From positions 682,001-746,000 of the forward strand of contig JASTWF010000070.1 of NCBI GenBank assembly GCA_030390025.1: a DNA stretch of 64,000 bases. Direction: 5' to 3'. Of the stretch, positions 1,356 through 53,099 are shown piece by piece. Numbering within the stretch: position 1 is the stretch's first letter; each line of letters starts with the position of its first letter. The notes under the pieces are model-generated. The model was not told the DNA's origin. It did not search any database and was given only the letters and a program-made list of their open reading frames with translations. The position numbers were made by a program, and so were the translations under genes. The DNA comes from Squalus acanthias. Its lineage: Eukaryota.

Positions 1356-1403
1356 TTTCTATGGCCAATAGCCAAGTCAGCGCATCTATTGACACCACTG
1401 TGT

Positions 1404-2340
1404 CATATCTACCTCACCATCACCTCTCTCGACCCATCTACTGTCTCTAAATTGTCACACTGCTTGTCCAATATCCAGCACTGGATGAGCAGAAATTTAC
1501 ACCAACTAAATATTGGGAAGACCGAAGCCATGGTCTTTGGTCCCCGGCACAAATACCGCTTCCTCGCCATGGACTCCATCCCGCTCCCTGGCAGAACCAG
1601 ACTGTTCAGAACCTTGTTGTTATACCTGACCCTGAGATGATCTTCGGACCACATATCTGCACCATAACTAAGACTGCCTATTTCCACCTCTGTAACATCG
1701 CCCATCACCAGCCTTGCCTCAGCTCATCTGTGGCTGAAACCCTCATCCGTGCCTTTGTGACCTCTAGACTTGAATATTCCAAAGCACTTCTGGCCGGCCT
1801 CCCACATTCCATCCTACTTCAACTTGAGGTCATCAGAAACTCGGCTGCCCTTGTCCTAATTCTAACCAATACCTGTTCAATGATCACCCCTGTGCTCGCT
1901 GAATTACATTGGCTCCCGTTTAGGCAACACCTCGATTTTAAATGTCTCATCCTTCTTTTCAAATTCATCCACGGCCTCACTATCCCTTTCTCTATAATTT
2001 CCTCCAGTCCCACAACCCTCCGAGATATCTGTGCTCCTCCAATTCTGGCCTATTGGACATCCCCAATTATAATCTCTCAACCATTGTCGGCTGTGCTTTC
2101 AGCTGCCTGGGCCCGAAGCTCTGGATATCCCTCCCTGAACCTCTCCAACTCCCTATCTTTCTCCCCTCCTCTAACACGCTCCTTAAAACCTACCTCTTTG
2201 ACCAACCTTTTGGTTATCTGCCCTAATATATCGTTAGTTCTTACGTGGCTTGGAGTAATTGTTTTCTGAAAACGCTCTTGTGAAGCACCTTGCGACATTT
2301 ACTACGTTAAAAGCGTTGTATCAATACCAGTTGTTGTTGG
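1404..2340 (+). mobile_element. L2-type LINE 3' fragment
   Basis: Translates as IQHWMSRNLHQLNIGKTEA, AFVTSRLEYS, ITPVLAELHWLP; ends in (GTT)n tail. Confidence 0.85.
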
Positions 2341-2545
2341 AGTTGCATCGGGACTTAAGACAGGACTCACAGGAAACAGACTATTTTACAGCAAGCAAAC
2401 TTTATTTGCTCATCAAACAAACCTTATTTGCTCAGCAAACAGAGTTTATTTAAGCAGCGCAGTATAGCTAACAGTCTGCAGAGTCTATTTAAAAAGAGTC
2501 TGTACGAACTACAGCAAATAGAATTCGTGACGCAAACTGCAGCAA

Positions 2546-2621
2546 CTCTCCCTCTCTCACTGTGTCTCTCTGACACTCTCTTTCTCTCTCTCTCTGTCTC
2601 TGTCTCTTTCTCTTTCTCTCT
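2546..2621. repeat. (CT)n-rich microsatellite
   Basis: Direct inspection. Confidence 0.85.
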
Positions 2622-3359
2622 GATAGCTCAGCAAACATGCGCAGGAAGTACAATGAGACATAGTTCACAATTTTGCTTTGATATTGTGATTCACACACAT
2701 CTAGGAACTTAATCATGATTCTAGAAACAAAAATTGGGGAATACGCATCATTCAATCAAGAATGTTCGTGACAACAAATTTTTCAATTAAATGCAAGCAA
2801 TGGTTACACACAAAACCATCATGAATTAAAAGAAAGGTGTGTTTCGATCATCAGGTAATGCTAAGCAGATCCATTGGATGTAAACCTCCCTTTACAACTG
2901 CCAGTGATGCTAACTAACACATTTCAGAAGAAAAGGTCTCTGGAAATTTCTCCTCAACTCCCTTACACAAGCAAGCTCCAGCAGCACATGGTTACCAACA
3001 ATCCAGTCATACTTAAAATACTTTCGACTGACTGCAATGTGTCATTACTGGATATTTCTTAAATAGTGGAATAGAATAGATTTCTGCAACACTTTCTATT
3101 GTACAAGGTGTAGGTTCTCTTTAAACACACGCGTACAGATACCGGTATGCATTCATTTATTGTGGATTGCATTTTAATCACAAGAACAATTTTTAGAAAA
3201 CTTCTCCCAGGTATCATCGGAGGGGTTCAGGCCTTCCCAAATATGGCCGGGTGTTGGTCGGTTCAGTGGTGGATTTTCTTTCCTCAAATGGCCTTGTGGT
3301 TGATATCTCTGTTTGGAGAGTGTGCAATTCAGCAGTTACAGAATATAACTACCTCTCCT

Positions 3360-3705
3360 GCTCGCGTCTGAGTCAGAAGTTAGTGGGTTCAAGTCCCACT
3401 CCACAGCACATAATCCAGGCTGATAACCCAGTGCCGGTACTGAGGGAGCGCCGCACTGTCGGAGGTGCCGCCTTTCGGATGAGACGTTAAGCCGAGGCCC
3501 GATCTGCCCTCTCAGGTGGACGTAAAAGATCCCACGGCCACTATTTCGAAGAAGAGCTGGGGTTCACCTGTTAAAATTTATCCCTCAACCAACATCACTA
3601 AAACAGATTATCTGGAAACCATAACGTTGCTGTTTGTGGGAGCTTGCTGTGCGCAATATGGCTGCAACGCTTCCTATATTACAACAGTGACGACACTTTA
3701 AAAGT
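3360..3705 (+). mobile_element. tRNA-derived Deu-domain-type SINE (SacSINE1-like)
   Basis: B-box-like gggttcaagtccc head; gtaaaagatccc..gaagaagagc..tatccctcaaccaacatcac core shared with copies at 6350, 16560, 37495. Confidence 0.75.
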
Positions 3706-4725: not shown

Positions 4726-4984
4726 TTAAACTTCTAGTGCATTGTTCTATTTTAGGAAAACTTTTTTAAATTTGCTTGCGGGAAATTTCCAACAAACTTG
4801 TCACTAACTTGCTACAGTGGCATCAGTCAAGGCAGAAAGTGCAGAAAAAAGCGACACCAGAAAGTCCTCGTTGTTTCAAGTTAGTTGCTCACCGCCATCG
4901 TACTGATACACTGGATTATCTTTAGAATACGCTAAACGGTGTTTCAAAAAGCAATACATTCTACGTAAATCCTGGCGAGTGCAC

Positions 4985-11782: not shown

Positions 11783-14700
11783 ATGTTCAAGGCAGCTTTT
11801 TCCCTGATCCTCATTGTCCACGTGTTCTGGCCTTACGGTGAGTGAGACACGGTTCCAAACTCCTAAATGGAATCAGCCAAAAACTGGAAACAATGGACTG
11901 TGTTTACTAAGTTGAAAATGTGACCGAGCTAACAACTTTTGGGCTGATATTTTCTTCCCCTCCCTATCTCTGTAACCTCCTCCAGCCCTGCAACCCTCCG
12001 AGATTTCGGCGCTCCTCCAATTCTGCCCTCTTGCGCAACCCCGATTTCCATCGCTCCACCATTGGCGGCCGTGCCTTCAGCTACCTGGACACTAAGCTCT
12101 GAAATTCCCTCCTTAAACCTCTCCACCTCTCTCTCCTCCTTTAAGACGATCCTCAGCACTTAGCTCTTTGACCAAGCTTTTGGTCACCTGTCCTAATATC
12201 TCTTTCTGTGGCTCGGTATCAAATTTGTGTAAAGCGCCTGGGGTCCTTTAATTACGTTAAAAGCGCTGTATCAAAGAAAGTTGTTGTTGATAATGTCGGT
12301 TTACTTTCTGGTTCTTCTATAAGGCGAAGTAAAGGCAAACTAGAGAATGGATATAACAAGCAATAACTGAAGGCAATAATGATGCTGTTCTTAAATTACA
12401 GGCGAGGTGTTTCAACGCGGCTTCTTTCTATCGCTCAATAATCAGTTCTAATGTAAAAATAATCCCTCTAGTTACAGAATCCCAGCCCATCCTGTCCCGG
12501 AGCCCCTTCACAGTGACAGCCGGAGTCGGCCAGTCGGTTGAATTGGAATGTCACCAGATTTCTGAAGTGGAATTTGTGAATAGCTATTTCTGGTACAAGC
12601 AGCGTGTGGGTGAAGCCCCGAGACTAATCGATATCCCATCCTGTAATCGGACCGATTGCAAGTTTACTTCTAAAAAAGGACACACCGAATATATACTGAT
12701 CCTGGAAATCCGCAATTTGCAGGTGGCTGACACCGGCTCCTATTACTGTGTTGATAGGGATAGCAATGCACCGCTCGGGAATGGATCCACACTGCTGGTT
12801 GGAGGTAAGAGCAAAACCAAATTGAATTCAGATCATGCACAGCAATATCATTCGGTGTAAAGTAAGAGTTAACTGTGTCCCAATCCCTGTCCAGACAGTT
12901 CCACACCCAAGACGGCTGTGCTGGTGTTTGCTCCGCCGGGGGAGCCGCATTTAAGGGGCACCGTCCCCTTGGTGTGTTTGGTCACTGGCATCTCCTCGAA
13001 CCAGATTGCTATTTACTGGAACGTTACCGGACAGTTGGCCGAGGGACCGAGCGATTCCGGTACACTGGACCCGGACGGGACCTACAGCATCAGAAGCCAT
13101 GTGATGGTCTCGGGGGAAGCCTGGAGAAGCGGCGGGGTCTGCACCTGTATTGTTGAGCTGGGTTCCAATGACAAATCTTGGGCCAAGAGCGTGTCGCGCC
13201 CCAAAACAGTGGCAGGTGAGTCTGTGATCTGTATAGCGAAGGTCAGCATTTAGCTTTAGCGTCAGTTGGAGTATTTCACTCGCTCCTAAGCGCCTGAAGT
13301 CTGTAATTAAAGCAACACCACGGGATTAGCATGAATATCTATATATCAGGAGAATAGTGCTGTCAGTTTGTTATAAAACACATTGAAATAAGCTACGGTC
13401 ACCCACCGTCCAAGGTCTTGTAAATACTTCCTCCGCTCTTGGCTGACTTTATATTTCTGCGGGTCATTTTAGAATCATAGAATGATGCTGCACAGAAGGA
13501 GGCCATTCGGCCCATCGTGCCTGTGCCGGCTCTTTGAAAGAGCTCTCCAAATGATCCCACTCTCCAGTGCTCTTTCCCCATAGCCCTTGCAGAATTTTCC
13601 CCTTCAAGTATTTATCCGATTCCCTTTTGAAAGTTATTAGTGAATCAGCTTCCACCGCCCTTTCAGGCAGCGCATCCTGGAATGGATTGGAGTGAACGCG
13701 CTTTCTGACCTGAAACTAGTCAAGAGATGGGGTGAAATAGTTGGCTGAACGCGTCTTCTGGCATCAGATGCTCGCTCATTTCCACCCGTTTATTTTCTCG
13801 TTTCCTGTTTTAAAGACCCGAACCCCACTTATCAACCCCACTTTCCCCGTGAAATATAATTTCATATAATCGGGTTATGAAGCTTCACTGAAATTGGGTA
13901 ATCGTTCCAGTTTATCACTCATAAAACATGTGGGGTGTTTGTGCACAAATCTTTGAAGGTGGCAGGAGAAGTCGAGAAGACTGTTAAAAATACATATGGG
14001 GTGCTTGGTTTATTAATAGAGGAATAGAGTACAGAAGCAAGGAAGTTATGCTAAACATTTATAAAGCAATGGTTGGGCCACAGCTGGAGTATAGTGTCTA
14101 ATTCTGGCCAAAACACTTTAGGAAGGATGTCAATTCCTTGGAGAGGGCAGAGAGGAGATTTCCTAGAATCGTAACAGGGATGAGGGACTTCAGTTATGTG
14201 GAGAGACTGGAGAAGCTGGGATTGATTGTTCTCCTTAGATGAGAGAAGGTTAAGAGGAGATTTCATAGAGGTGTTCAATCATGAATCATGAATGGTTCTG
14301 ATAGAATAAATAAGGAGAAACTTTTCCCATTGGCAGAAGGGTCGGTAACCAGATGACACGAATTTAAGGTGATTGGCAAAAGTACCAGAGACGACATGAG
14401 GCGACATTTTTTTACGCAGCGATTTGTTGTGATCTGGAACGCGCTGCCTGAAAGGGCGGTGGAAGCAGATTCAATAGTAACCTTCAAAAGAGAATTGGAT
14501 AAATACTTGAAGGGGTAACATTAACAGGGCTATGGGGAAAGAGAAGGGGGAGTGGGACTAATTGGGTAGCTCCACCAATGAGCCGGCACAGCCACGATGG
14601 GTTGAATGGTCTCCTTCTGTGCTGTAATCACTCTATGATTCAGTTCTGAAATAGGATGTTTTGATTGTGCGTTATTAAAATTATGGGGCAATACTGAGAT

Positions 14701-17700
14701 TAGCGTTTGTCAATTTACCAAAACCACCAAACTAGTGCAATTTATTCCATTTTGAGCTTTCAATTGACCAATATTAGTCGCATTGGCTGGTTTGTCCTTT
14801 CACACACCGGCTTTGATGCTCCTACATTGTAACTGGTTCAGGTTTCTCATCAGAGAATCCCAGAAAGTAATGAGTTGACCCAGCAGCATTTTCTAAGTGT
14901 TTCTCTCTGTAGGGTGGTGCATTCTGACCCTTCCCGTTGCAATAATTGTCTCGTTGAGCCTGGTTCTTGTATTGATCCTCATTTTCATTTGGAATCGTAA
15001 AAGCGGCAGATCAGGTGAGAATTTACGTTTATCAGGAATATTTTAATAAATGTTTGTTTAATGTGACTCCCTTCTCGAAGATTTCAATACTAATTACAGT
15101 TAACTGTTTCAGAAGAACGAGTCAAAAGACCCCACAAGGAAAGGTGAGTAACTGATCTATTTACAAACTTCCTCAGTAACAGTCTCACTCTAATTAATAC
15201 TGTGTCAGAACCATTCAACCCCAACTCCAATTTCAATATTTTCCAAGTTCTTTTAAGATTGATTCAAAGTCCATTCCACAATTCTGTTCTCGATATTTAT
15301 GGCACGTGACCAAGGACTTACAAGAAGTAATGCTTGTTTCATATTTTTGTTCGCATACAGTTTTAGTTTGAGAGAGAGAACGATAAGAACAGGAAGAAAT
15401 GAGCGACACTCAGGTGAGTTGGACTGAAATGTTGCTGCAGGTAGAACATCAATTGTGGGATATTTCAAAGATCAATCAGTGCATTTCCCGCCATGCAAAA
15501 GTCCTGCCATCGTGCTCATGTCTGCCGGACCTACAGAAAGCCTAATTATTGGTTATTAATGCTGACAATTATGTATCAGATCTACAATAGACGCCAGGCT
15601 CCGGGGGTGTATCATGCATGTCTATCCATTGGCGTATTGGGATACCATTGGCATATTGGGGTATCATTAGCATATTGCTGGACCATTGGCATATTGGTGG
15701 ACCATGGAAATATTAGGGGGCCATTGGCGCATGGTGCCTCTATAATTAATTATACATTAGCCAGAATTGATAATATTTAAATTCATATTCTTAACTGTTA
15801 ATACACAGATGACACCCGTCAAATGGAGGCGAAGCGGACACATCAGGGTGCAATACATGTAAGTAAGTTCATTGAACCTCTTGCAATAATATACAGGAAC
15901 TTGGTGATTTCTGGGATGGGTGCAAAATGCGGGATATTTCACGCAGTTGGCATTGAGCAGGTCATTGTGCAGATCATCTTAATTTGCAGCGAATCCCACT
16001 CGTTGCTCCAACTGGAAACAGAACATATCCCGCAGGCCTCTTCCCATCTGATAATAGAAAGGATTGGTTAATGTTCCGGGTAGAATGCCTTCACCAAAAT
16101 TTACTGCGGATTTTCAGCAGTTTCTGTTTCTATTTCAGATTTCCAGCATTTTGTTATTTTCTATTATTTTTTTCTCTACATTGAGTCCATGTCCACTCAC
16201 CCGACAAACCCCAGCTCCACCCCCCCCCCTCACCCCGCCCCCCGCACACCCCCGCCCCGCCAATCCGGCGGAGATACTGTTTTTAATATATTAGCACTGT
16301 AATTATTATGAAGATTCAGAAATAAGACGACACTCAGGAAAGTTTCACAGTTAAATCAAAATATATTTCTATGGTAAGTCGGCAAAGAAGGAAGCAGTTT
16401 GGATAGAATGTGACTGTGTGTGTGTGCGTATGAGAGTGCGTGTGAGTGTGTAAATGTGAGTGGGTGTGTGTGCGTGTGACTGTGTGTACATGTGAGAGTG
16501 CATGAGTGTGTGAGTGTCTGTGAGTGTGAGCGTGTAAGTGAGTGTGCGTGCGTGAGATTGTCAGCCTGGCTCATTGGGTAGCACTCTCGCCTCTGCGTCC
16601 GTAGGTCATGGGTTCAAGTACCACTCCAAGAGACTTGCGCAAAAAAATCTAGGTTGATGCTCCCAGTGCGGAACTGAGAGAGTGCCGCACTGTCGGAGGG
16701 GCAGTACTGAGGGAGCGCCGCACTGTCGGAGGGGCAGTACTGAGGGAGCGCCGCACTGTCGGAGGGGCAGTACTGAGGGAGCGCCGCACTGTCGGAGGGG
16801 CAGTACTGAGGGAGCGCCGCACTGTCGGAGGGGCAGTCCTGAGGGAGCGCCGCACTGTTGGAGGGGCGGTATTGAGGGAGCGCCGCACTGTTGGAGGGGC
16901 AGTACTGAGGGAGCGCTGCACTGTCGCAGGAGTCGTCTTTCAGATGAGATGTTCAATTGAGGCCGGGATGTGGACAGAAAAGAACTCACGCCACTATCTC
17001 GAAGAAGAGCAGAGAGTTCTCCCTGGTGTCCTGGGCCTATATTTATCCCTCAACCAACATCACTAAAAAACAGATGATCTGGTCATTATCCCATGGCTGT
17101 TTGAGGGAGCTTGCTGTACGCAGTTTGGCTGCCACGTGTCCTTCAGTGACTCCTCTTCAAAAGTGTTTATTTGGCTGTAAAGCGATTTGGGAGGTGCTAA
17201 GGTCATGAAAGGTGCTGCAGAAATGAAAGTATTGCTTTCTTTATGATGTGTGATGGCGTGTGTGTGTGATACTGTATGGGTATGATTGATTGTATGTGTG
17301 TCATTGAGTGTGAGTGTATTTGAGTGTGTTTAATTGAGTGTGTGTGTCTGATTCTGTGTGGGTATGATTGATTGTGTGTGTGTCTATGAGTGTGAATGTG
17401 AGTGTATTTGAGTGTGTGTATCTGTGTGTAATTAAGTGTGAGTGTGTGATTCTGCCTGGGCATGATTGATTGTGTGTGTGTATGTGTGTGTGTGTGATTG
17501 AGTGTCTGTGTGTGTAAATTTGTCTGTGTGTGATTGATTGTGTATGTGTGTGTGTGTGTGTGATTGAGTGTCTGTGTGTATGTGATTATGTCTGGGTATG
17601 GACCGAGACTCCAGGATGGTATGTTGCCTCCGTGGTGCAAGGGTCAAGGATGTCTCGGCGCGGGTGCAGAACATTCTGGAGGGGGAGGGGGAACAGCCAG

Positions 17701-20700
17701 TTGTCGTGATACATGTTGGTACCAACGACGTAGCTAAAAAAAGGGAAGAGGTCCTACAAGTAGAATTTAGGGAGTTAGGAGCCAAGCTAAAAAGTAGGAC
17801 CTCGAAGGTAGTAATCTCTGGATTACTACCAGTGCCACGTGCTAGTAAGAGTACAGAGAACAGGATAGTTAGGCTAAATACGTGGCTTGAGCAGTGGTGT
17901 AAGAGGGAGGGTTTTAAATTTTTGAGGCATTGGAACCAGTTTTGTGGTAGGTGTGACCTATACAAAAGGGACGGTCTACACCTGTGCAAAGATGGAACTG
18001 ATGTTCTCGGGGTAATTTTTGATAAAGCAGTTCGGGAGCATTTAAACTAGTATGGCAGGGGGCTAGAAACCTATGTAGTGAAATAGAGGAAAGTGAAAGG
18101 CAGACAGAAATAAATGGTAAAAGGGTGAGGAACAAAAAACAAAGGGCCAAACCAATTCATAAAAAATGTGAGCATAAAAAAAGCCTGAGGGTTTTATACC
18201 TTAATGCGAGAAGCATCAGGAACAAGGTAGATGAATTAGCTGTGGAAATAGAGGTTAATAATTATGATCTAATTGGGATTACGGAAACATGGTTGCAGGG
18301 TGAGCAGGGCTGGGAGCTTAACATACAGGGGTATTCAGTATTTAGGAAGGATCGACAAAAAAGAAAGGGAGGAGGGGTAGCATTGCTGGTAAAAGAAGGG
18401 ATAAATGCAATTGAAAGGAAGGATATTAACTCAGTTAATACAGAATCTATATGGGTGGAGCTAAGAAATAGCGAGGGGCGAAAAACATTAATAGGAGTGG
18501 TATATAGGCCTCCAAATAGTAAAATAGAGGTTGGGGAGGGCATCACGAGGGAAATTAGAGAAGCGTGCAATAAGAGCACAGCTGTCATCATAGGTGACTT
18601 TAACTTACATATAGATTGGAATAGCCTAATCAGTAAAAATAATGAGGAGGAGGAATTCCTTGAGTGTTTAAGGGATGGTTATCTGGATCAATATGTCGAG
18701 GAACCAACTCGGGAACAGGCTATATTGGACTGGGTACTGTGCAATGAGAAGGGACTAATTAGTAATCTTGTTGTACGGGGACCCTTGGGTCAGAGCGATC
18801 ATAACATGATCGATTTCTCACTCGAAATGGAGAGCGAAGAAATTGACTCAGATACTAAGGTCCTGAATTTAAACAAGGGGAATTATGATGCCATTAGACG
18901 GGAACTGAGTAGGTCTGATTGGACAACGTTCCTGGGAGGACTGGAGGTAGATAAACAATGGCAAGCATTTAAAGATAGAATGACAAAATTGCAAAAATTG
19001 TTTATACCAATCTGGCATAAAAGGAAATCTAAAAAGGTGACTCAACCGTGGATAACAGGGGAAATTAGAGACAGCATAAAATCCAAAGATAGGGCGTATA
19101 AAATAGCCAAAAAAAGCGCCAGGGCGGAAGATTGGGAACAGTTTAAGATAGAGCAAAGGAGGACAAAGGGCTTAATCAAGAGGGGCAAAATAGCTTACGA
19201 AAGCAAGCTGGCGGAAAATATAAAAACTAACTCCAAAAGCTTTTATAAGTATATCAAGAGGAAAAGACTGGTGAAAACCAAAGTTGGCCCATTGCAGTCA
19301 GATACGGGGGAATATATAACGGGAAATAAAGAAATGGCAGACCAACTAAATGCATACTTTGGGTCAGTCTTTACGAAGGAAGACACAAAAAACCTCCCTG
19401 GGATATCGGGAAAAATAGGGACATTTGCAAAGGAGGAACTGACGCAAGTCAATATCTCTAAGGATATGGTGTTAAGGAAGCTAAAGGGATTGAAGGCGGA
19501 CAAATCCCCAGGGCCTGATAACATGCATCCTAGGGTGCTGAAGGAGGTGGCCCTAGAGATAGCGGATGCACTAAGTATGATTTTTCAGAATTCATTAGAC
19601 TCGGGAACAGTGCCCATGGATTGGAGGGGAGCTAACGTTACCCCACTATTCAAAAAGGGGGGTAGGGAAAAAGCAGATAATTACAGACCTGTAAGCCTTA
19701 CATCAGTTGTGGGCAAAATGCTGGAGTCCATCATTAAGGATGAAATAGCGGAGCACTTAGCAAATGGGGACAGGATAGGACAGAGTCAACATGGATTTAC
19801 AAAGGGTAAATCGTGCTTGACTAATCTATTGGAATTTTTTGAGGGAGTAACTGGTAAAATAGATGGGGGAGAGCCAGTAGATGTGGTGTACCTGGACTTC
19901 CAAAAGGCCTTCGATAAGGTCCCACATAAAAGATTAGCAGGGAAAATTGAAGCTCATGGGATAAAGGGGAAAGTATTGACGTGGATAGAGAACTGGCTGT
20001 CAGATAGAAAACAGAGAGTTGGAATAAACGGCTCATTTTCTGAATGGCAGGCAGTAACAAGTGGGGTACCACAGGGATCTGTCCTGGGTCCCCAGCTGTT
20101 CACAATTTACATTAATGACCTGGATCAGGGAGTCGGATGCAGCATTTCCAAATTTGCAGACGACACTAAACTAGGAGGGGGGGTGGGCTCAGAGGAGGAG
20201 ACCAGGAAGCTCCAGAGCGATTTGGACAGACTGGGTGATTGGGCGGATAAATGGCAGATGCACTATAATGTGGACAAGTGCGAAGTTATCCACCTTGGGT
20301 GCAGGAACGGGAGGGCAAATTATTATTTAAATGGCAATAAATTGGGAGAGGGGGAAGTACAGAGAGACCTGGGTGTTCTTGTACACCAGTCACTGAAGGC
20401 GAGCATGCAGGTGCAACAGGCGGTCAAGAAGGCAAACGGTATGCTGGCCTTCATAGCAAAAGGGTTGGAATACAGGAACAGGGATACCTTGCTGCAGCTG
20501 TACAGGGCACTGGTGAGACCACACCTCGAGTACTGTGTACAGTTTTGGTCGCCTCATCTGAGGAAAGATGTTCTTGCCATGGAGGGGGTGCAGCGGCGAT
20601 TCACCAGGCTGATACCAGGAATGGCGGGATTGACCTATGAGGAGAGACTATGTAGTTTAGGTATGTACACACTGGAGTTTAGAAGATTGAGAGGGGACCT

Positions 20701-21100: not shown

Positions 21101-21144
<44 letters not shown>

Positions 21145-24583: not shown

Positions 24584-24654
<71 letters not shown>

Positions 24655-32700: not shown

Positions 32701-35700
32701 CATTTCACGCTGAACGGGCCAACTAACATGTAATGAGCCAATGACACAATAAATGGATTGATTGGGAGCGCCGTGGAGTTGGAGCGCCTCCCGACAACCG
32801 CTACCTGACCGCCGGTTCCTGCAGCTCCTTCCCGCGGCGACAATAACCATCAGCAGTAGGAGAAGCGCCGCCGCCGAAGTCCCGTAAAGCAGTACTCTGC
32901 AGTTGGTTTGTAGCGGGGACACTGAAGAAAGAAAAAAAAAACTTTTATTTTTTTTAAATCCCGTAACCCGAGCTTTCTCTTTCTCGCAGAAGGTTCAAGG
33001 AGGCCCAACACCATCTTCTCAACCGCTAGGGATGGCCAAGCAATGCCAGACTTACCAGCGTCACCCACATCACGAGAACACATTAAAAATGTTGCTGGAA
33101 ATCATTAGATNNNNNNNNNNNNNNNNNNNNNNNNNNNNNNNNNNNNNNNNNNNNNNNNNNNNNNNNNNNNNNNNNNNNNNNNNNNNNNNNNNNNNNNNNN
33201 NNNNNNNNNNNNNNNNNNNNNNNNNNNNNNNNNNNNNNNNNNNNNNNNNNNNNNNNNNNNNNNNNNNNNNNNNNNNNNNNNNNNNNNNNNACAGGCAGAC
33301 AAATAGACAGACAGAACTATATAACCATGAACCTATCGAAGGGTAGTGCAGAGAAGGAGACTATGAGGCCCTCCATGTTTGTGCCGGCTCTATGCTAGAT
33401 GGATCCAAAACTAATCCCATTACCCGGCTCTCTCTCCATATTCCTGTATCAATCCAAAACGAATCCCAAAGAAGACTCAGTCCCCTGGGATGCACCACTT
33501 CCAATCCTTCGCCAATCCGAGGAATACCCATTTACCCTATCTCCTTATGTTTTGAATGTCACCTAACTTTCCATCCATGCTGACACATCTCCTTCACACC
33601 AAACCCCTAAATTGTTTCCCAACAGCCTTCTTGTGCGACACTTTATCAAACGCCTCCTGGAATTCCATACACGTTACATCTACTGCAATCCCTTTAACTA
33701 TCCAATCGGTCCGTTCCACGAAAGCTCTTTTAAATTTGTTAAACACGACTCCACTTTCCAAATCGCTGCTGGTTGTCCTTAACTAGCCCAGACATTTTTA
33801 ACTGCTCACCACAGTCAGTTCAAATTACGGATTCTAAGTGTTTGTCCGCAACTCATCTGATATATGGTAGCCAAAGTGACACCTTTCTCCTCTCTTAGAT
33901 GAAACGTTAGATAGAAACCGTTTGGGTCGGAAGAATAAGGAGGTCACATACTCCTTGGAAAATAAGTATCTAAATGGAGCAGAGGAGCAGTGGGATCTGG
34001 AGGTACAGATACACAAATCACTAAAAGTAGCGACGCAGGTTAATAAGGCCATAAAAGCAAACCAAGAACTGGGGTTCATTTCTAGAGGGATAGAATTGAA
34101 AAGCAGAGAAGTTATGTTAAATTTCTGTAGAACCTTGGTTGGACCACACTTGGAATACTGTGAAAATTTCTGGGTTCCATATTATAAAGAGGATATAGAG
34201 ACACTGGAGAAGATACAAAAAGATTTACTAGGATGATACCAGAATTGAGACGTTATGCCTATCAGGAAAGATTGAACAGGCTGGGCTCCTTTCTCGACAA
34301 AAGTGAGGACTGAGAGGTGACCTGATAGAGGACTTTAGATTATGAAAGGGTTTACATAGAATTACATAGGATATACGGCACAGAAACAGGCCATTCGGCC
34401 CAACCAATCCATTCCGGCGTTTATGCTCCACTCGCGCCTCCTCCCGTCTTTCCTCATCTAAATCAATCAGCTTATGCCTCTATTCCCGACTCCCTCACAT
34501 GCTTGTCCAGCCTCCCCCTTCAAATGCATCTATACTATTCGCTTCAACCACTCCCTGTGGTAGCGAGTTCCACATTCTCACCACTCCCCGTGTAAAAAGT
34601 TTTGTCCTGAATTCCCTATTGAATTTCTTGGTGACTATTTTATATTGATGGCCTCTAGTTATGCTCTACCCCACAAGTGGAAACATTCTCTCTCTATCTA
34701 CACTGTCAAAACCTTTGATAGGGTCGACGTAGAGAAGATCTTTCCAATTGTGGGGGGGAGGGGGCGCTTTGGATCAGAACTAGGCGCCACAACTAAAAGA
34801 TAGTTACTATTAAAACCAATTGGGAATTCAGGAGAAACTTCTTTACCCAGAGAGCGGTGAGAATGTGGAACTCGCTACCACAGGGAGTGGTTGAGGCGAA
34901 TAGTATAGATGCATTTAAGGGGAAGCTGGATAAACACATGAGGCAGAAACGAATAGATGGATATTGATGGGTTTATAATGAAGTGGGATGGGTGGGGACT
35001 CGTGTGGAGCATAAACACCGGCACGGACCTGTTGGGCCGAATGGCCTGTCGCTGTGCTGTACATACTGTGTAATACAGATACCTACATGCAGGCATCGAG
35101 AGAGAAAGTGATAAACTGGAAATGGCAATTATATGTTCCAATTTTACGCATGGACAGCTCAGACAGATTCCTTCTCTCCCACCATATACGTATGGCCTAG
35201 CTAGACAGATGGACTTTATAATTCAGAAAGCTCAAGACTGTAACATTGAGAGGGATAAATGATTGAGTAATTCTACATGGACACGCAGAAAGGGAGAGAC
35301 TTTGAATGTATAAAGTGATATTGCGAACAATTAACTCTTACATCAGCACGGAAGATATTAGTAAAGTGTCACTGCCAATAGTTACCTCTCTGAGATGAGA
35401 CACTTTCACTGATCAGATCCCCACTGGAGTTGATTGGAACGGCGCAAGTACAGACAGCGCCGCTGCTCCAAGTTTCCGCCGAGACGCTGATGTGACTCCT
35501 TACACTGTAGGTCCCGTCCGGGTCTATTGTCCCGGAATCGCTCGGTTCCTCGGTAACCTGTCCGGAAACATTCCAGCGAACGGGAAGGGAATCGAGAGAC
35601 ATGCTTTTCACCAAACACATCAATGGGACCCTTTCCAGCGAGGGAATTTCATCCGGCGGTGGAGCTAAGAGAAAGATTTCCGGAGACCCTGGCGAGTTTG

Positions 35701-36793
35701 GGGGGTTAAGATACCATTAATATTCGACGTAAATTGGTCGTTATTTATGATGAAATGAGTAAAACAATCGCAATTCTTACCTGCAATGAGCAATTTCGGG
35801 CCGTTTCCGAATATCAAGGGCATTCCGCTATATTTCTTAGCTGCGCAGTAATACACCCCCGAATCATTCCTCTGGACATCTTTCACAAACAGAGAGTAAA
35901 TACTGGATTCGTTGTTAACTTCTCCGGAAAATCTTCCTTCAGGAGGCATGTACTTCCCCACGCTGTAAACTAGCTGCAGATGCTCTCGGTGCTGCTGCTT
36001 ATACCACTGTACAGCTTCTACTGCTAACCAACCCGTGTGACAATCCATCTTAAAGATACTTCCAACGGAGACAGTCAGAAACGGCGGATTCTGGCGGAAA
36101 ACTTCCTGAGAGACAATAACTGAGAGAACAACATATTCACAAGAGGGTCTGTTACACGGCAGAAAAAAACACCGTTTCCTATAAAGAAACGGGCACAGTA
36201 GTAAACTGTGAATAGGACCATCCGATCATTAATGATCATGGATACCAATATCTAAATGAGTCAAATGATGGGGGTTAAAATTGAGTCTATAACAGGAGAA
36301 AGAATGAAAGGAAGAAAGAAAGAAAGAAAGGAAGAAAGATCTTTACAGCCAATGCATTACCTTTTGCAGTGTAGTCGCTGTTGGAATGTAAGAAACGCGG
36401 CAGCCAAATTGCGCACAGCAAGCTCCCACAAACAGCAATATGATAATGACCAGGTAATCTGTGATGTTGATTGAGGGATATAATATTGACCCCAGGATAC
36501 CGGGGAGAACTCCCCTGCTCTCCTTCCAATAGTGGCCGTGGGATCTTTTCCCTACACCTGAGAGGGCAGACGGGACATCCAATAGATGGAAAATATTGAC
36601 ATTTGGTCGAATTTCATTCGCCTGAGATAATCCAGTCCATCAACATGACACTAATATTACAGAATACAGCGCGCTATCTTCTACTTGTCTGATTAGCTCA
36701 ATGATCTTACGCTTGAACTCCGCCATGTATTAGAAGCACATAAGACTGACCTGGAAAGAGATGGAACAGCGCGCAGGGAGTTAAGAAGCTCAT
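29715..36793 (-). CDS. Gene B: non-rearranging VJ-C1 transmembrane IgSF receptor with ITIM/ITSM-like tyrosine motif (PRARP/VJC1-like), 301 aa, 6 exons
   Basis: Exons 36793-36751 (MSFLTPCALFHLFP), 36119-35781 (V with FGNGPKLLIA), 35688-35386 (C1), 32921-32805 (TM NCRVLLYGTSAAALLLLLMVIVAAGR), 32661-32603, 29759-29715 (TLYAHLAFNAVPTL stop). Total 906 nt, open frame; AATAAA on - at 28997-28992. An N gap lies in the C1-TM intron. Confidence 0.82.
29805..30290 (-). mobile_element. CR1 3' end
   Basis: Same family as 4985-5330. Confidence 0.75.
30440..32575 (+). mobile_element. CR1 LINE ORF2 fragment (frameshifted) in gene B last intron
   Basis: Close similarity to the 18125-20992 ORF; (CTATGTTT)n tail. 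Confidence 0.92.
32805..32921 (-). CDS. Gene B transmembrane exon
   Basis: Polypyrimidine plus CAG acceptor; hydrophobic run with no charged residue, then RSCRNRRS; GT donor. Confidence 0.85.
33111..33290. other. Assembly gap (180 N)
   Basis: Run of n. Confidence 1.
33330..35075. mobile_element. Nested old CR1 fragments, both strands
   Basis: LGFISRGIELKSRE, LEYCENFW and CR1 3' UTR motifs. Confidence 0.75.
35386..35688 (-). CDS. Gene B C1-set exon
   Basis: IFLLAPP..LMCLVK..VRWNV..DGTYSVRSHISV..W..VCTCAV. Confidence 0.92.
35781..36119 (-). CDS. Gene B VJ exon
   Basis: MDC..WYKQ..DSGVYYCAAKKYSGMPLIFGNGPKLLIA; no RSS. Confidence 0.92.
36325..36580 (-). mobile_element. Deu-type SINE 3' half in gene B intron 1
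   Basis: Reverse complement of SINE core. Confidence 0.75.
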
Positions 36794-42443: not shown

Positions 42444-42767
42444 TCAGTCGGAACACGAGGAGGCGCTGATGGTCTTGAGAAGAGGCGACCTCAGGGAGCC
42501 GTGGCTGACGCTGCAAGAATAGCTGCAGCCCTTGTTCCAGGCGGCGGCGGGGACTCTCAGGTAACTGCTCAGGCTGTAGGTTTGATCGCTGTCCGGGGAC
42601 ACGGCGCCTGTCGTCACCCCGCTGTCTGTCTCTTGGTCATCCACGCTCCAACGGAGCCGCACCAAGCCCGGCTAAAAGCGACTCACCAGGCAGGACAGAG
42701 TGGCCGATCCCGAGCCGATTTCTTCCGAGGAGGGAGGGAGGACAAGATGGGCTACGATCCTCGCTGC
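42444..42767 (-). pseudogene. Ig light-chain C exon 1 (sigma-cart/type I), inactivated
   Basis: SSEDRSP..WSVDDQETDSGVTTGAVSPDSDQTYSLSSYLRVPAAAWNKG..HGSL..SCSD; 4-nt deletion near the start and in-frame TAG (CGC TTT TAG); AATAAA on - at 42139-42134. Confidence 0.88.
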
Positions 42768-45748
42768 CTGTGTGTGGGGGGAAAGAAAATTCATTAGTTT
42801 ATGGAATCCGTCAGCAGTGGGACTCTCTGATCTGAAATCAAAGACGACAAAGAACCCCGAACAACATTCACTTTAAAATAAATTACTGATTAATACAGGA
42901 GTTCCAATAAATTCTTAAATCTCTAATTCCTCTGCTCCTCTGCCAATTCTTTTGCCGACATTACAAAAGTGACTTGGTTCAAAATTACTTCATTGGCTGT
43001 AAAGCGCTTTGGGACGTCCTGAGGTCGTGAAAGGAGCTGTAGAAATACAAGTCTTCCTTTAATCCTTTCTTTCTTTGTTACTTTCCTTCAACAGAAAATG
43101 CTGGAAATACAGACCGGGTCAGTAAGCCTGTGAGAGGCGGAAAGATCAGTAACTGACCAGTTCAGGTGCAGGTTACACCCCCGGAACCGCACTAACCTGT
43201 CTGTTCCCGTTACAGACACTGACCGACCGGCCGTGTAGTCCCAGCATTGTCTGTTTTTATTTGATTTCCTAAAATTGCAGTTTTTTCCTTTGTACTTCAA
43301 TATAATAAAGCGTTTGATTGTCTTAAAATGCGGTCGGTGTTAACTTTAAAGAGGTGAATTCACGGAGCTGTGACCCGCTTTCCACCGAGAGTCCACATAT
43401 GTTCTGATATCTCAAACTGATGCAGCCCTTTCAAAGAGCCGCCACAGGCACGATGGACCGAATGGCCTCCTTCTGTGCTGTATCATTCCATAAGATTCCG
43501 GAAGGTATTTTGGGGATTCATATTATTTTAGAATTGCGAGTTAGAAACTGATCGGCTTTAAATGTTGCGGCGATAATGATTGAGCCGGGTCTGTTACCAG
43601 GTATTGAAGAGCTCACTGAATAAAGAGAGGACATTGTACACGGGCTGGCAATTAATGTAGTGACTCTGCCTAGCAATATTGAAAATGCTTTACGTAGAAT
43701 TACACAGAATATGCAGCACAGAAACAGACAATCGTCCCAACCAATCCATGTCGGCGTTTATGCTCCACTCCAGCCTCCTCCCATCCTTCCACATCTAACT
43801 CTATCAGCATATCCCTGTGTTCCCTTCTCCCTCATGTGCTTATCTAGCCTCCCCTTAAATCTGTACTATTCGCCTCAATCAATCCGTGTTGTAGCGAATT
43901 CCACATTCTCACCACTCTCTGGGTAAAAAAATCCCTATTTGATTTCTTGGTGTTATCTTATATTGATGGCTCCTAGTTTTGATCTTCCGCACCAGTGGAA
44001 ACATTCTCTCTGTGTCTACTCTATCAAAACGTTTCATAATTTTAAAGACCTGTATTCGGTCACCCTTCAGCCTTCTCTTTCCCCGGTTTGATGAAGGGTT
44101 TTCACTGTTCTATATTTCTAGTAAAAAGGGAACCAAGGAATGTAAAAGATTCTCGCTACAGAGGCAAGGAAGGATTCCTGCGGGTGAATTGATTTCTATG
44201 TCGGGATCAGCTCACTCTCGCTGATCCCAGAGCGATCCGGTCAACACTGGGCGGTAGCGGGACCCGACAGATCAACACAGGAGAATCGGCGCTATCCCCG
44301 GGGGGACACTGGACAGGGAGAGTCTGCAGACACAGTCTGGGGAGGGAGAGGGTCAGCAGCGAGAGAATCAGATGGAGAGAAAGTTCCCTTCAACAAGCAT
44401 TACCCAGTCTCACTCACACACACAGGGCTGGTCAGTAATTGTCACTGCGCCGCTCCATGGTAAAGCGCCGGTTCTGCTCTATAAACAGCGGGGAGATTGC
44501 AAATAATGAGCTCAGACTGATTAAATATCGGAACAGGTAATTCAGAATTAAATCAGTCCCGTTAAACGAATACAATCCCGACTAGTCCCGGTGTTGCTGG
44601 CGACAGGGAGTCGATCCAACCGGTTGTGTGCTGGGACAGCGGGTCTCGGGAGGGTCCTCTCTCTCTCCCAGCCCAGAGCCGGACACCCGACGGCTGCGGT
44701 CAATGGGACAATACGCCACAGGAATAAAACCAGCAGCAACATTGAATGTTGTAAATGACGGTAATTGGGTTGGGATTCCCCCGGGGACTATCCCGCCGGC
44801 TCCGGGCAATCTATTTCAAATCGGGCGGTGCCGACTCTTTGAAAGTGCTATCCAATTAGTTCCACTCCACAGAGCCCTGCAATTTTCTCCCTTCAAGTCT
44901 CAGTGTAACATAGTGACATATTCAGTGTCCACTGTCAGAACTTCACAGTGTAGCTCACAACTTTCCTCTCTCTCTCTTTATCTCTTGCTGCACCAGAATG
45001 ATACCGGGGCTTAGAGGGTTAAATTACGAGGACGGGTTGCATAAACTTGGCTTGTATTCCCTTGAGTTTAGAAGATTCAGGGGTGATCTGATCGAGGTGT
45101 TTAAAATGTGAAAAAGGATTCGATCGGGTAAACACAGAGAAACGATTTCCTCCGGTCGCGGAATCAAGAATCAGGGAAGATCAACTGAAAATTAGAGCCC
45201 GGCCATTTAGGAGGGAAGCACATTTTCACACAGGCTCGAGCGGCTGAATGACCTCCTCCTGTTCCTCTGTCACTATTTTATCAATCAGTGCTCCTGTGAG
45301 GACATTCAGCCCATCGTGCTTGTGCCGGCTCTTTGAGTAGAGCTATACAATTATTCCCACTCTCCTGCTCTTTCCACGCAGCCCTGCATTTATCCTTTTC
45401 ATGTATTTATCCAATTCCCTTTTGAAAGTTACTATTGAATCTGCTTTCACCGCCCTTTCAGGCAGCGCATTCCAGATGACAGCAACTCGCTGCGTAAAAA
45501 GAACAATTCTCCTCATCTGCCCTACTGAATGGAAGCAGGAAATGGTGTTAAACTTCATTTCAGCGCAGTATTATTCCCCGAGGCGCTTCAATAATTCCAA
45601 TTCTGATCAGTTTAACATTTTCGGGGTATAAATAGATCCAACATCAAAATTCACAGCATCGAGATTTCACTGGCGCCCGGGAATGAAAACGACTGTAAAT
45701 TAATAATAATTGAAACAATGTGAATGACAGAATGAGAGAGTCACTTAC

Positions 45749-46304
45749 TCTTTATACTCAGGACGGTCCCCGGTCCGAAGATGAATCCCGAGTCCCACAC
45801 AGCACAGTAATAGACGGCGGAGTCACCGGGCACCAGGGTTCCGATGGTCAGAATGTAACTGTTACCGGAGGCGTCTCTGGAAGGTAGAAAACGGCCTGTG
45901 AAGCCGGTGGCTCGGTATATCGATCCATCGGTGTTATATCTTAGCACCCAGACCGGAGCTTCCCCGGGTCGCTGTCGGAACCAGTTCATATCCTCGCTGC
46001 CCACAGCCCCGTTCTGCATCGCACATTGTAACCGGGCGGTCTGACCCGCGGAGACAGGATCGGATATTGGGAACTGATTGAGGACGGGAGCCGCCAGGAC
46101 ACCTTCAATAAAAGAAAAAAATCAAACCATTCAGAGACTTGGAGCAAATAGGATGTTAATACGTCAATAAACACGGAAAGAAAACAGGCCGATTCTCGGT
46201 ATTGAACCGATTTAATTGCGGATAAAACCCTTGACTAAAATCATCCGTCTCTCACCTGTTAAATGGATCAGCAGAGCCCACAGGAGATGCATCGCTGGAG
46301 CCAT
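45749..46304 (-). CDS. Ig light-chain leader (46304-46256) and germline-joined VJ exon (46102-45749), cluster 1
   Basis: MAPAMHLLWALLIHLT/GVLAAPVLNQ..QCAMQNG..WFRQRPGEAP..DSAVYYCAVWDSGFIFGPGTVLSIK; intact splice sites. Confidence 0.93.
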
Positions 46305-49799: not shown

Positions 49800-49930
49800 A
49801 ACTGATGAAAGGTCATCGATCTGAAACGTTAACTCTCTTTCTCTCTCCACGGATGCTGCCTGGCCTGCTGAGTTTTTCCAGCGTTTTCTGTTGTTATTTC
49901 GGATTTCCAGCATCCGCAGTATTTTGCTAT
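49800..49930 (+). mobile_element. Penelope-like terminal fragment with minimal hammerhead core
   Basis: CTGATGA-a-AGGTC-atc-GATCT-GAAA-CGTT followed by gatgctgcctggcctgctgag..gatttccagcatc. Confidence 0.7.
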
Positions 49931-50763
49931 CGTAATAGTAATATATTCAGTGTCCACTGTCAGAACTTCACAGTCTAGCTCACAACTTTCCTCTCTCTCT
50001 CTCTCTCTGTCTCTTGCCGTCCACGAATGATACCGGGGCTTACAGGTTTAAATTACGAGGACGGGTTGCATAAACTTGGCTTGTATTCCCTTGAGTTCAG
50101 AAGATTCAGGGGTGATTTGATCGAAGTGTTTAAAATGTGAAAAAGGATTCGATCGGGTAAATACAGAGAAACGATTTCCTCTTTTCGGGGAGTCAAGAAA
50201 CAGGGGAGTTCAATTAAAATTAGAGCCCGGCCATTTCGGAGGGAGGCACTTTTTCACATAGGCTCGAGTGGCTGAATGGCCTCCTCCTGTTCCTATGTCG
50301 CTATTTTATCAATCAGAGTGCGTTCAACCCAGCCTGCCCGTGCCGGCTCTTTGAAAGATCTATCCAATTATTCCCACTCCCCCTGGTCTTTCCACAGAAA
50401 CCTACATTAATCCTCTTCAAGTATTTATCCAATTCCCGCCTGAAAGTTACTATTGAATCTGCTTCCACCGCCCTTTCAGGCAGCGCATTTCAGATCACAA
50501 CAACTCGCTGAGTAAAAAGAACACTTCTCCTCATCTCCCCTATTGAATGGGAGCAGGAAATGGTGTCAAACTTCATTTCAGTGCAGTATTATTCCCCGAG
50601 GCGCTTCAACAATTCCAATTCTGACCAGTTTCACAGTTTTCAGGTATAAATTGATAAAACATCAACATTCACTGAATCGAGAATTCTCTGGCGCCCGGGA
50701 ATGAAAGCGATTATAAATTAATAATTGAAACAATGTGAATTATAGAATGAGAGAGTCACTTAC

Positions 50764-51319
50764 TCTTTATGCTCAGGGCGGTCCCCGGTCCGAAGATGAA
50801 TCCCGTGATCCACACAGTACAGTAATAGACAGCGGAGTCACCGGGCACCAGGGTTGCGATGGTCAGAATGTAACTGTTACCGGAGGGATCTCTGGAAGGT
50901 TGAAATCGGTCTGTGAAGCCGGTGCCTCGGATGATAGTGCCATCGGTACCGTGATAGAGCACCCACACCGGATCTTCCCCCGGTAGTTGTCGGTACCAGT
51001 TCACGTAAAAGCTGCCCACAGCTCCGTTCTGCATCGCACACTGTAGCCGGGCGGTCTGTCCCGCGGAGACATGATCGGATATTGGGGACTGATTGAGAGC
51101 GGGAGCCGCCATGACACCTTCAATAAAAGAAAAAAATCAACCCATTCAGAGCCTTGGAGCTAATAGGACGTTAATGCCTCAATAAACACGAAGAGAAAAC
51201 CGCCCGATTCTCCAGATTGAACCGTTTTTAGTTACAGATAAATCCGTGACTAAAACCTTCCGTCTCTCACCCGTTAAATGGATCAGCAGAGCCCACAGGA
51301 GATGCATCGCTGGAGCCAT
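50764..51319 (-). CDS. Ig light-chain leader (51319-51271) and germline-joined VJ exon (51117-50764), cluster 2
   Basis: ..QCAMQNGAVGSFYVNWYRQ..YYCTVWITGFIFGPGTALSIK; intact, but its own C exon is deleted. Confidence 0.93.
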
Positions 51320-51436
51320 TTCCTCCGGAGAACCGCCAACAGCCACCGCCCAAATTTCCGACTGAACCGTGCGCTGTTCCTGTAAACTCCGGGACCCGGT
51401 CCGGTTAGAGTGTCTGCAAACCCGAGACTCCGGGTC

Positions 51437-51459
51437 TATTTATTACCCGGTATGCAAAT
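51437..51459 (-). promoter_or_regulatory. IgL promoter 2: octamer ATTTGCAT (51459-51452) and TATA-like element
   Basis: Perfect octamer in light-chain orientation about 135 bp upstream of the ATG. Confidence 0.85.
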
Positions 51460-53099
51460 GTCTGGGTGGGGCCAGGAAAAGGTTGAAGGTAGATTTTTAA
51501 TTCGGGTATTTTTAACTCTATTTGTGCCTGATTAAATTATTAATACTTAAACCTTCGATTCACAAATGTTTAATCTCCTATTTGAGTTTCTGTTAAGGGA
51601 AGGTTCAAAGATTTCGAATATTTTTGCGTTTAATGAAAATTTAGTCTGTGTTCTACCCCAGAAAAATGAGGGGCGGATTGTAGAGATACGGATCAACTGA
51701 TGCACTTCGGCCGGTATCTTTCTGATAACGCGCTGTTACTCTCTGATATACTACATCAGATTTTAACATAATCTTTTCCCCGTAAAATACACATTTCGTA
51801 ATAGACTGAAGTCCCTTTCTCTAAATCATTAGCCAGTCATCCCCGGATTTGTCAATCCCTTTAAAATTGGTGTTTCAATTCACAAATATGATTTGGGCTT
51901 CAGTCTGTAAATACATTTCTGATGAGAATATTCCTGAGGCGGAGTAAAGAGCTGTTTAGATGAATGAGAAAGAGGGGAAGAAAGCGTCATTTTACAGCCT
52001 GCCCCGGATTAAAGAGAAGTTGTTCTATTATAATCTGAGTCATCCGCTTTAAAACTCAGGTGGGCAAATAAAACTCGGCACAGTATTAATAAAATTACAC
52101 CTTGCCTTTAATTTGCTGCGAGTCCGATTAATGCGCGCAGTTCCCGTTTTAAACCCTGTTCCAGTTGAATTATTAAGCGGCGGGGTCAGTTTTTTCTGGG
52201 GCTCTGCGATGTTGAACACTTCCCCTGTTTGGAGTCAATCCCTAACTCCCCTCACTGAATCTTGGTTCATGTTTTTAAAAGTCAGATTGAAACTGGTTGG
52301 TGTCAGTTACTTCAGGGCGAAAGAAAAATGCATCAATTGTTAATAATTGGGTGGTCTCGAGATATTAGCGTCAAAGGAATAATATTTTTTGTTTACTAAA
52401 CATCTGAATTGTGTAACTGTGTAGTTAGGTATTCCCCTGTTCCTTAGAAAAACACACATAGCGGCCAAAGGGATTCTCGCCCCCTGAATTCGGGCAGGGG
52501 TTGGTTCTCACCTGGACAAGGGGCTTTTCGGTGAAGCCCAGGTGCTTGGTTCTGTTTCTGCGCTTGAACTGATCACTGATTCCTCTGGTCTGTTAAAATT
52601 ATTAAAGGGGCTTTGGTGCTGTGACTGGAGCTGCTCGCTCAACCTTGCACAGAGACCAAGAGGTTTGTCACTGCTGACACTGACACGGCTGACTGGAGAA
52701 CCAATCATTGCAGAGCACTGGCCACACCGCGCACTGCACCTTGGGATGTGTAGTTCCACATTGGGCAAAAGCCAAGATCAGCGTGTCTATTGACACTACT
52801 GTGTCAGCTCTACTGCACCACCACCTCTCTCGACCCCTCCACTCTCTCTAAATTGTCACACTGCTTGTCCGACATCCAGGTTTCCCGCCTGAGAGCTTAA
52901 ATATGGCGGCAGGAGCTGATGCAGTGGGTTTGGGTGAGGTTACCCCATTTATATATTTAAATACCCCACCCCCACCCTCACCCGACCATCGTATTCCCAT
53001 CCAAGCCCCCAGTACGTTTCGCAGATCCCATTGGGGTACAGGAATCAATTGCTGGCTCAATAAAGTATTCTAAGAGCACTATATGTAGTTTACACAGCA

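Follow-up and report, generated by a model that had tools for sequence, protein, structure and literature searches.

Germline-joined sigma-2 light-chain clusters alternate with unsplit VJ-C1-TM receptor genes in a 1.4-Mb array of Squalus acanthias

Relatives of the VJ gene invaded by RAG are sought on the strength of linkage, with UrIg located in the MHC and UrIg2 near IgH/TCR. A 64,000-nucleotide stretch of the Squalus acanthias genome (contig JASTWF010000070.1, positions 682,001 to 746,000; hereafter the window) holds two unsplit VJ-C1 genes, A and B, which an initial annotation viewed as hypothetical precursor genes placed between immunoglobulin light-chain (IgL) clusters. This raises the question of whether these genes truly belong to an IgL array, and what such a neighborhood would say about their origin. 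Databases label the genes of this array as ordinary Ig chains. The two genes form a tail-to-tail pair and their reading frames, observed directly, are intact:

11783..26187, + strand: gene A, intact
11783-11837, 12478-12804, 12895-13215 and 14913-15014, + strand: gene A leader, VJ, C1 and transmembrane (TM) exons
15113-15143, 15361-15413, 15809-15858 and 26101-26187, + strand: gene A tail exons (ILYASL, ITIM-like)
29715..36793, - strand: gene B, intact
36751-36793, 35781-36119, 35386-35688 and 32805-32921, - strand: gene B leader, VJ, C1 and TM exons
32603-32661 and 29715-29759, - strand: gene B tail exons (TLYAHL, ITIM-like)

Both genes consist of a split leader, a single-exon VJ and one C1 followed by the TM, with a V-C1 intron of only ~90 bp. 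The TM segments are uncharged, and the tails of 35-75 aa carry ITIM-like motifs (ILYASL, TLYAHL). CDR3 length is constant among A copies and in nearly all shark homologues, and the solved structures that the V domain of B resembles most are TCR alpha and light chains. For gene A, the V-to-C1 splice is present at a depth of ~3 in contigs of a relative, clearly in one of four runs that we presume to be RNA and partially in two of the four. A and B likely serve as inhibitory surface receptors encoded in the germline. They possibly form a disulfide-linked pair, as each has a Cys just ahead of the TM. With respect to selection, dN/dS of the A C1 domain is 1.25 (interval 0.75-3.28) and hence not below 1, and the value for the A loops is 2.6 (crude interval 1.1-7.4, from 10 copies with non-independent pairs and crude loop boundaries), a weak hint that the loops may be under selection.

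The window also contains IgL clusters, all on the opposite strand to gene A:

42444..46304, - strand: sigma-2 IgL cluster V1, broken (leader ~46256-46304, joined VJ ~45749-46102, C ~42444-42767 with a frameshift and a stop)
50765..51110, - strand: sigma-2 IgL VJ V2, C exon missing
59380..63227, - strand: sigma-2 IgL cluster V3, broken (joined VJ 62877-63227, C 59380-59700 with one stop)

Judged by similarity, the IgL clusters of the contig are assigned to sigma-2 (sigma-cart, type I, NS5). Their V and C exons match "type I" chains, with V identities of 84% to Squalus, 72% to Heterodontus and 65% to Leucoraja, and the C exons are 76-100% identical to the Squalus chain. The build is that of a leader-VJ-single C minicluster without a TM, an octamer-like motif is found in 45 of 48 clusters, and one CDR3 length is common to 47 of the 48 VJ exons. 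Split V and J segments were found in none of the 48 IgL, 21 A and 22 B V exons, and no recombination signal sequence (RSS) lies near any of the 48 IgL or 22 B V exons. Three of the 21 A exons have an RSS match, in each case with 3 mismatches and inside the exon; a control sigma V on C19 has an RSS with a single mismatch. B-like matches on C19 were considered as extra receptor copies and proved to be split sigma IgL clusters with RSS. According to PMC4279169 and PMC5192425, germline joining is common in sharks; the latter describes joined sigma-2 genes in skates, as in all 48 cases here, whereas those of the horn shark are split and those of the nurse shark occupy four loci.

A scan of the whole 1.68-Mb contig (C3553) places these genes in a larger setting. 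An array of 1.4 Mb contains 48 germline-joined sigma-2 VJ exons that alternate with VJ-C1-TM genes, of which 21 are A-type and 15 are B genes of the main type, and the window is a single repeat of it. The prevailing gene order, observed directly, is one of IgL-IgL-A-B units ~59 kb apart (the median A spacing is 59 kb), in which A and B lie 9-35 kb from IgL inside a common duplication unit. The proposal that the receptors sit between light-chain clusters is borne out by IgL on both sides of 20 of the 21 A genes. Intact genes number 24/48 for IgL, 11/21 for A and 9/15 for B. The initial annotation had overlooked the repetition of the pair (~20 copies across the array), the germline joining of every IgL VJ on the contig, and the broken state of the four IgL clusters nearest to the window's A/B pair.

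The link between receptors and light chains was originally drawn from the left edge of the window, where an L2 element and its flank were read as the edge (1363-2340) of another IgL unit:

1..1361, + strand: CR1-type LINE fragment, the 3' part of ~2.09 kb that starts ~730 bp left of the window
1362..1376, + strand: unit-specific flank that joined contig 681269 directly until CR1 inserted
1377..1405, + strand: terminus of repeat X (a ~400-bp dispersed repeat), most of the flank once taken as unique
1403..2340, + strand: L2-type LINE, 5'-truncated and nested in repeat X, by alignment to copies
2341..2552, + strand: further repeat X sequence, resuming after the L2
47760..48405, + strand: repeat X/L2 junction upstream of V1, without CR1, ending where the V2 unit starts
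52762..52879, + strand: repeat X/L2 junction upstream of V2, without CR1

The predicted light-chain cluster is indeed present, with its VJ (C3553:679253-679603) ~2.4 kb and its C (676112-676435) ~5.6 kb outside the window, in a unit that is collinear up to contig 681269. This position (window -731) aligns with window 47759, and homology resumes at 1362 = 47760, such that the IgL unit is interrupted by the ~2.09-kb CR1 insertion. The CR1 label comes from an RT-like ORF of related copies, and both it and the L2 label of 1403..2340, which follows the initial annotation, are presumptive. The flank at 1363 appears 40 bp short because CR1 inserted there; a search at the insertion showed no clear target-site duplication. 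The CR1 sits in the IgL upstream region and distinguishes the IgL copies facing gene A.

The claim that the flank and the L2 truncation point at 1404 recur at 47763-47805 and 52765-52806 holds for all three copies (1362-1478 matches 52762-52879 at 86%, and 1362-2024 matches 47760-48405 at 74%, with indels). The supposed uniqueness of the ~40-bp flank does not hold, as 29 bp of it are the terminus of a dispersed repeat. This 29-nt core has 186 genome matches at ≤2 mismatches, with many chromosomes among the matches listed; all 8 dispersed sites examined start at the same base and run on as a common repeat for up to ~400 bp, and only ~15 bp (1362-1376) are unit-specific. Neither is the flank part of the L2 consensus: independent L2 copies read ...GCTGACGACACC followed by CAGCTCTACCTC across the start region, which places the L2 start at ~1403-1405 and the flank outside, and seven such copies align from 1408-1411. 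The repeat X sequence picks up again behind the L2 (window ~2336-2552), which means that the L2 lies inside an older repeat. Although the core is thus common genome-wide, this does not refute the IgL unit, since the junction and kilobases of flanking DNA are array-specific. The exact repeat-L2 junction pattern has 22 matches in the 3.7-Gb genome, all 22 on the window's contig (reversed control, 0), and the array L2 copies are 85-96% identical to that of the window, versus at most 79% for independent copies. Of 49 junction copies on the contig, 44 are upstream of an IgL VJ at a distance of 8 kb or less, and 42 of the 48 IgL VJ exons have one.

These nested insertions, which are directly seen to be shared among units, bear on how the array was built. 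Gene A follows 19 of 20 CR1-marked junctions and 3 of 29 unmarked ones, which argues that IgL and receptors were copied together. Block duplications spanning IgL-A-B-IgL are also seen, including a 38-kb block at 97% identity (239406-277290 versus 687340-649461) that covers two IgL, B and the 3' part of A; another block, 27 kb long at 99%, covers A, IgL and its C. Mantel tests correlate the distances of A with B (rho 0.42, p 0.012, 15 units) and of B with the next IgL (rho 0.37, p 0.045, 14 units). No correlation was found between A and its facing IgL (rho -0.09, p 0.70, 19 units) or between A and the IgL on the far side of B (p 0.17), and those IgL copies that face A do not form one clade; breakpoints or gene conversion inside units would account for this, and the unit was then not always copied whole. 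Copying of an intact unit every time is unsupported by the distance correlations. With respect to mechanism, we envisage an old elasmobranch neighborhood of sigma-2 IgL beside a PRARP-like pair, in which one joined sigma-2 cluster became fixed and the block then would have expanded by birth and death, likely through repeated unequal crossing-over, leaving about half of each gene type broken. The shared nested insertions follow a fixed order, in which repeat X came first, L2 second and CR1 last, the CR1 in the IgL copy that faces gene A.

Overall, we consider it highly probable that the tail-to-tail receptor pair and the joined sigma-2 clusters were duplicated jointly. That the interleaving is instead an assembly artifact of an unplaced, gapped contig strikes us as extremely improbable. 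Near-identical blocks do occur (C3553:1-46 kb against 223-270 kb at 99.5-99.7% identity, and C24:48.84-48.91 Mb against C3553:111-178 kb at 98-99.5%), as do scaffold gaps, and together they may inflate the copy number. Nonetheless, the median divergence between copies is 6-10%, no N run separates the left IgL from the window's gene A, and an IgL-IgL-A-B' order recurs, free of gaps, on scaffold C24, and on C185.

The neighborhood also appears to extend beyond Squalus. Models of sigma-2 and A/B fall on scaffolds of equal length in Heterodontus, Carcharodon, Rhincodon, Stegostoma and two Mobula species, and in Mobula hypostoma the RefSeq numbers are close (XP_062888095 for IgL, XP_062888102 for B); scaffold lengths differ in Chiloscyllium plagiosum (27.9 vs 107.6 Mb). 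Scaffold lengths and accession numbers thus suggest that four other sharks and two rays likely have the same arrangement. Unsplit A/B homologues are found in bony vertebrates (turtles, amphibians, lungfish, coelacanth, sturgeon). In a FastTree analysis that had no labeled TCR or IgH sequences among its entries, each of A and B clusters with proteins from bony vertebrates (turtle, lungfish, sturgeon, lizard, caecilian; support 0.94), which implies that the pair predates the shark/bony split. By Pfam family, the genes flanking the pair are RRNAD1-like, MRPL24 and PAQR-like, a set that we take to evoke the human 1q21-23 region.

In terms of origin, we see about an even chance that a sigma-2 cluster moved beside the pair in the elasmobranch stem, with the receptors carried along as IgL was amplified and the linkage uninformative on origins. 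IgL clusters are scattered in the genome (sigma on C19, another sigma-2 at C24:46.6 Mb), each of the three gene types is broken in about half of its copies and dN/dS of the A C1 domain is not below 1, all of which favor such a move; the hint of selection on the A loops is the sole point against it. It fits all the linkage data and, concerning origin, is compatible with joint duplication. A primordial linkage, in which sigma-2 and the VJ-C1 pair descend from one pre-RAG VJ-C1 locus, seems unlikely to us, even with a V-J-C1 build and split leader common to A/B and IgL, a pair older than the shark/bony split and signs of linkage in sharks as well as rays. The identity of A/B to sigma-2 is only 26-37%, and in the tree A/B stand as a group apart from IgL. 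Moreover, sigma-2 genes flank IgH in gar (PMC5985310) and lie inside the IgH V cluster in bowfin (PMC8423624), which favors a move and leaves ancestral linkage unproven, and a great white model labeled "IgL sigmaprime" lies near PSMB5/IgW (PMC12227049, table S1).

It is quite improbable that A and B are germline-joined relics of formerly rearranging TCR/IgL-like genes. The frequent germline joining in sharks, the joined state of all neighboring IgL and the TCR alpha- and light chain-like V of B would suit such relics, but the fixed CDR3 length, the short V-C1 intron, the ITIM-like tails with uncharged TMs and the unsplit homologues in bony vertebrates would not. The boldest reading, which we regard as unlikely, is that a single pre-RAG locus gave rise, by duplication in cis, to both sigma-2 and the VJ-C1 pair, such that "before" and "after" versions of the antigen receptor adjoin in sharks and rays within an MHC-paralogous (human 1q-like) region. 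Were this true, it would mark a second cradle of antigen receptors besides the IgH/TCR complex. Because A and B share the IgL duplication unit, apparently across sharks and rays, the locus is a place to test antibody gene origins, and even a derived linkage leaves a 1.4-Mb repertoire encoded in the germline, with ~24 light chains that are fixed and ~20 receptors predicted to be inhibitory. A literature search found no published account of this linkage, and Fu 2019, Ohta 2019 or Flajnik 2023 may contain one.

Among known systems, the A/B pair resembles PRARP. Fu et al. 2019 (J Immunol 202:1992) reportedly described PRARP as two paired VJ(-C1)-TM genes that do not rearrange and bear inhibitory tyrosine motifs, and Ohta et al. 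2019 (J Immunol 203:1882) are said to have described VJC1 genes in Xenopus. The single-exon VJ followed by C1 and TM, the cytoplasmic ITIM/ITSM (here ILYASL and TLYAHL) and the adjacent gene pair with bony-vertebrate orthologues are common to both, whereas the array here has not one pair but ~20, alternating with IgL clusters. As unsplit VJ-C1-TM genes, A and B are nearest in build to a single TCR chain, and they lie kilobases from light-chain clusters. A TCR chain has a charged TM residue and a short tail, in contrast to the uncharged TMs and the 35-75 aa tails with ITIM-like motifs of A/B. The supplement of PMC10751288 has no PRARP/VJC1 entry, and the searches gave no protein that bears the name PRARP. 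In PMC12227049, UrIg/UrIg2 genes are defined by at least three C1 domains, which A and B, with one C1 and then the TM, lack. UrIg2 nevertheless shares with them an unsplit VJ exon, a split leader, C1 domains, linkage to antigen receptors and a proposed precursor-like status, but it carries 9+ C domains at a distance of megabases from IgH/TCR (same source), whereas A and B pair a single C1 and ITIM-like tails with a position 9-35 kb from IgL.

Receptor gene pairs resembling the published non-rearranging pair PRARP form, together with fixed sigma-2 light chains, a repeated, co-amplified arrangement on C3553, the 1.68-Mb contig whose positions 682001-746000 are the window. The initial annotation had predicted a further IgL unit left of the window, which would place the tail-to-tail pair of unsplit VJ–C1–transmembrane genes, A and B, between light-chain clusters; this inference was right, and the case is larger than stated. 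Specifically, the unit is present up to contig position 681269, which aligns with window 47759; CR1 occupies the gap between that point and window 1362, where homology picks up again (1362 = 47760). As the unit was found there with both its VJ and C exons, the window's pair is flanked by light-chain clusters.

C3553:679253-679603, left IgL VJ, contains a stop
C3553:676112-676435, left IgL C exon, belongs to the VJ at 679253-679603

With respect to the junction upstream of the IgL VJ exons, window self-comparison aligned 1362-1478 with 52762-52879 and 1362-2024 with 47760-48405, in agreement with the earlier observation that the L2 at ~1404 has its flank and truncation point in common with L2 copies upstream of the IgL copies V1 and V2. 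All 22 genome-wide matches of the exact flank–L2 junction lie on C3553. The flank itself had been proposed to be unique and is not: its 29-nt core has 186 genome matches at two mismatches, and all eight dispersed sites fetched share the start base and run on as one repeat (repeat X) for up to ~400 bp. The continuation of repeat X is found again past L2 (window ~2336-2552), and upstream of ~1403 independent L2 copies differ from the one in the array, showing that the flank is not L2 consensus. The structure is therefore nested, consisting of repeat X, a truncated L2 within it and, in some copies, a 2.09-kb CR1 ~15 bp upstream. Repeat X (window 1377-1405 and 2341-2552), with a sharp, conserved left end and copies on C1, C2, C3, C7, C8, C9, C11 and C12, may be a SINE or some other non-autonomous element such as a transposon. 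Separately, a 988-aa open CR1-type LINE ORF2 frame lies in the last intron of gene A (window 18026-20989).

An inventory of the whole of C3553 except a 463-bp hole revealed, between 10 kb and 1.387 Mb, 48 IgL VJ and 50 C exons, 21 A-type VJ–C1 genes and 15 full main-type B genes, besides several divergent or broken B copies. The prevailing order is two IgL, then A, then B, the last two placed tail to tail. A genes are spaced ~59 kb apart, and the array contains inversions at around 380 kb and 1.28 Mb. These IgL genes are sigma-2/type I, with V and J joined in 48/48 and the same CDR3 length in 47/48; a search for RSS at the 48 found none, and sigma V genes on C19 do carry RSS. Intact models comprise 24 of 48 IgL, 11 of 21 A and 9 of 15 B; the window's own A and B are intact, and V1, V2, V3 and the left neighbour IgL are broken. 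The terminal IgL cluster (C3553:1386773) has the most divergent flanks and is 100% (C) and 95% (V) identical to the Squalus light-chain protein P0002. A second, divergent B lineage, sharing 50-60% V identity with B, has apparent counterparts in Mustelus and Cetorhinus:

C3553:105785-132433, 1066936-1067604, 1215820-1227838 and 1332161-1339876, divergent second B lineage
C24:48886125-48886865, further site of this lineage

CR1 is present at 20 of 49 junction copies (one assigned by distance only), and 19 of these 20 have A as their next gene, versus 3 of the 29 lacking CR1. Duplicated blocks of 27-38 kb (97-99% identity) include both IgL and receptor genes. Distances among A copies correlate with those among B copies (rho 0.42, p 0.012) but not with those among the facing IgL (rho -0.09), and thus crossing-over or conversion also cuts within units.

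In both receptors a split leader is followed by a single VJ exon, an intron of ~90 bp and one C1. A Cys stands ahead of the TM, which is uncharged, and the tail ends in ILYASL in A and in TLYAHL in B. The predicted V-to-C1 splice is present in low-depth contigs from a relative's runs, which we guess to be RNA. Sharks, rays, turtles, a lizard, a caecilian, lungfish, coelacanth and sturgeon have homologues, which carry automatic Ig-like names (30 of the matches were checked by name). A FastTree V+C tree that contained no labelled TCR or IgH placed A and B with these homologues and separately from IgL; A has one bony-vertebrate sister group and B another. These features agree with those of the PRARP pair, of which A and B are putative members. 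Among 10 intact copies on C3553, the loop regions of A-type V exons gave a crude dN/dS of 2.6, which hints weakly at diversifying selection.

Some array copies may be haplotype duplicates, because at 99.5% identity C3553:1-46 kb duplicates 223-270 kb, and C24:48.84-48.91 Mb, beside a scaffold gap, is a reverse copy of C3553:111-178 kb. The right end of C3553 is unique, with a single-copy RRNAD1-like exon, and the array therefore likely belongs at this C24 gap. Dermatopontin-like, perilipin, Ras-family, TLR, RRNAD1-like and MRPL24 exons lie to the right of the array (145 of 190 low-copy ORFs scanned), and a PAQR-like exon comes next on C24 (139 of 166 scanned); in human, RRNAD1, MRPL24 and PAQR6 are located at 1q22-23, near CD1. 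An intact single-exon Toll-like receptor ORF (C3553:1601954-1604566, 871 aa stop to stop) adjoins RRNAD1-like and MRPL24.

Elsewhere in the genome, IgH-like C arrays appear on C29 and C13. Two further sigma-2 clusters lie 2.2 Mb from the array (C24:46637910-46647323), one with a joined, divergent V (56%); the other has a broken V with a decayed RSS-like stretch behind it and may be what is left of a split sigma-2 gene. C19:4614981-4631021 holds two near-identical split sigma clusters with 12-bp-spacer RSS and an assembly gap between them; more copies of IgL, A and B, most of them degraded, are present on C185 and C3349.

Synteny in other elasmobranchs was read from scaffold lengths and RefSeq numbers of gene models. 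Sigma-2 and A/B models share a scaffold length in Heterodontus (22,062,530), Carcharodon (6,011,626), Rhincodon (10,821,110), Stegostoma (9,691,329) and, at chromosome size, two Mobula, and their RefSeq numbers differ by 7 to ~150; in Chiloscyllium plagiosum the lengths do not match. This indirect evidence indicates that the arrangement is probably common to sharks and rays.

Our literature search, which did not reach two key papers, found no description of IgL/receptor-pair linkage. In the accessible portion of PMC12227049, UrIg2, an unsplit VJ gene proposed as precursor-like, lies near IgH/TCR and PRARP is not mentioned; that of PMC10751288 cites PRARP merely in passing. The arrangement might bear on how antigen receptors arose, or sigma-2 might have moved there later; the second is the more likely on present evidence. 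Sigma-2 is located at IgH in gar and bowfin (PMC5985310 and PMC8423624, accessible portions), which suggests that the linkage here may be derived.
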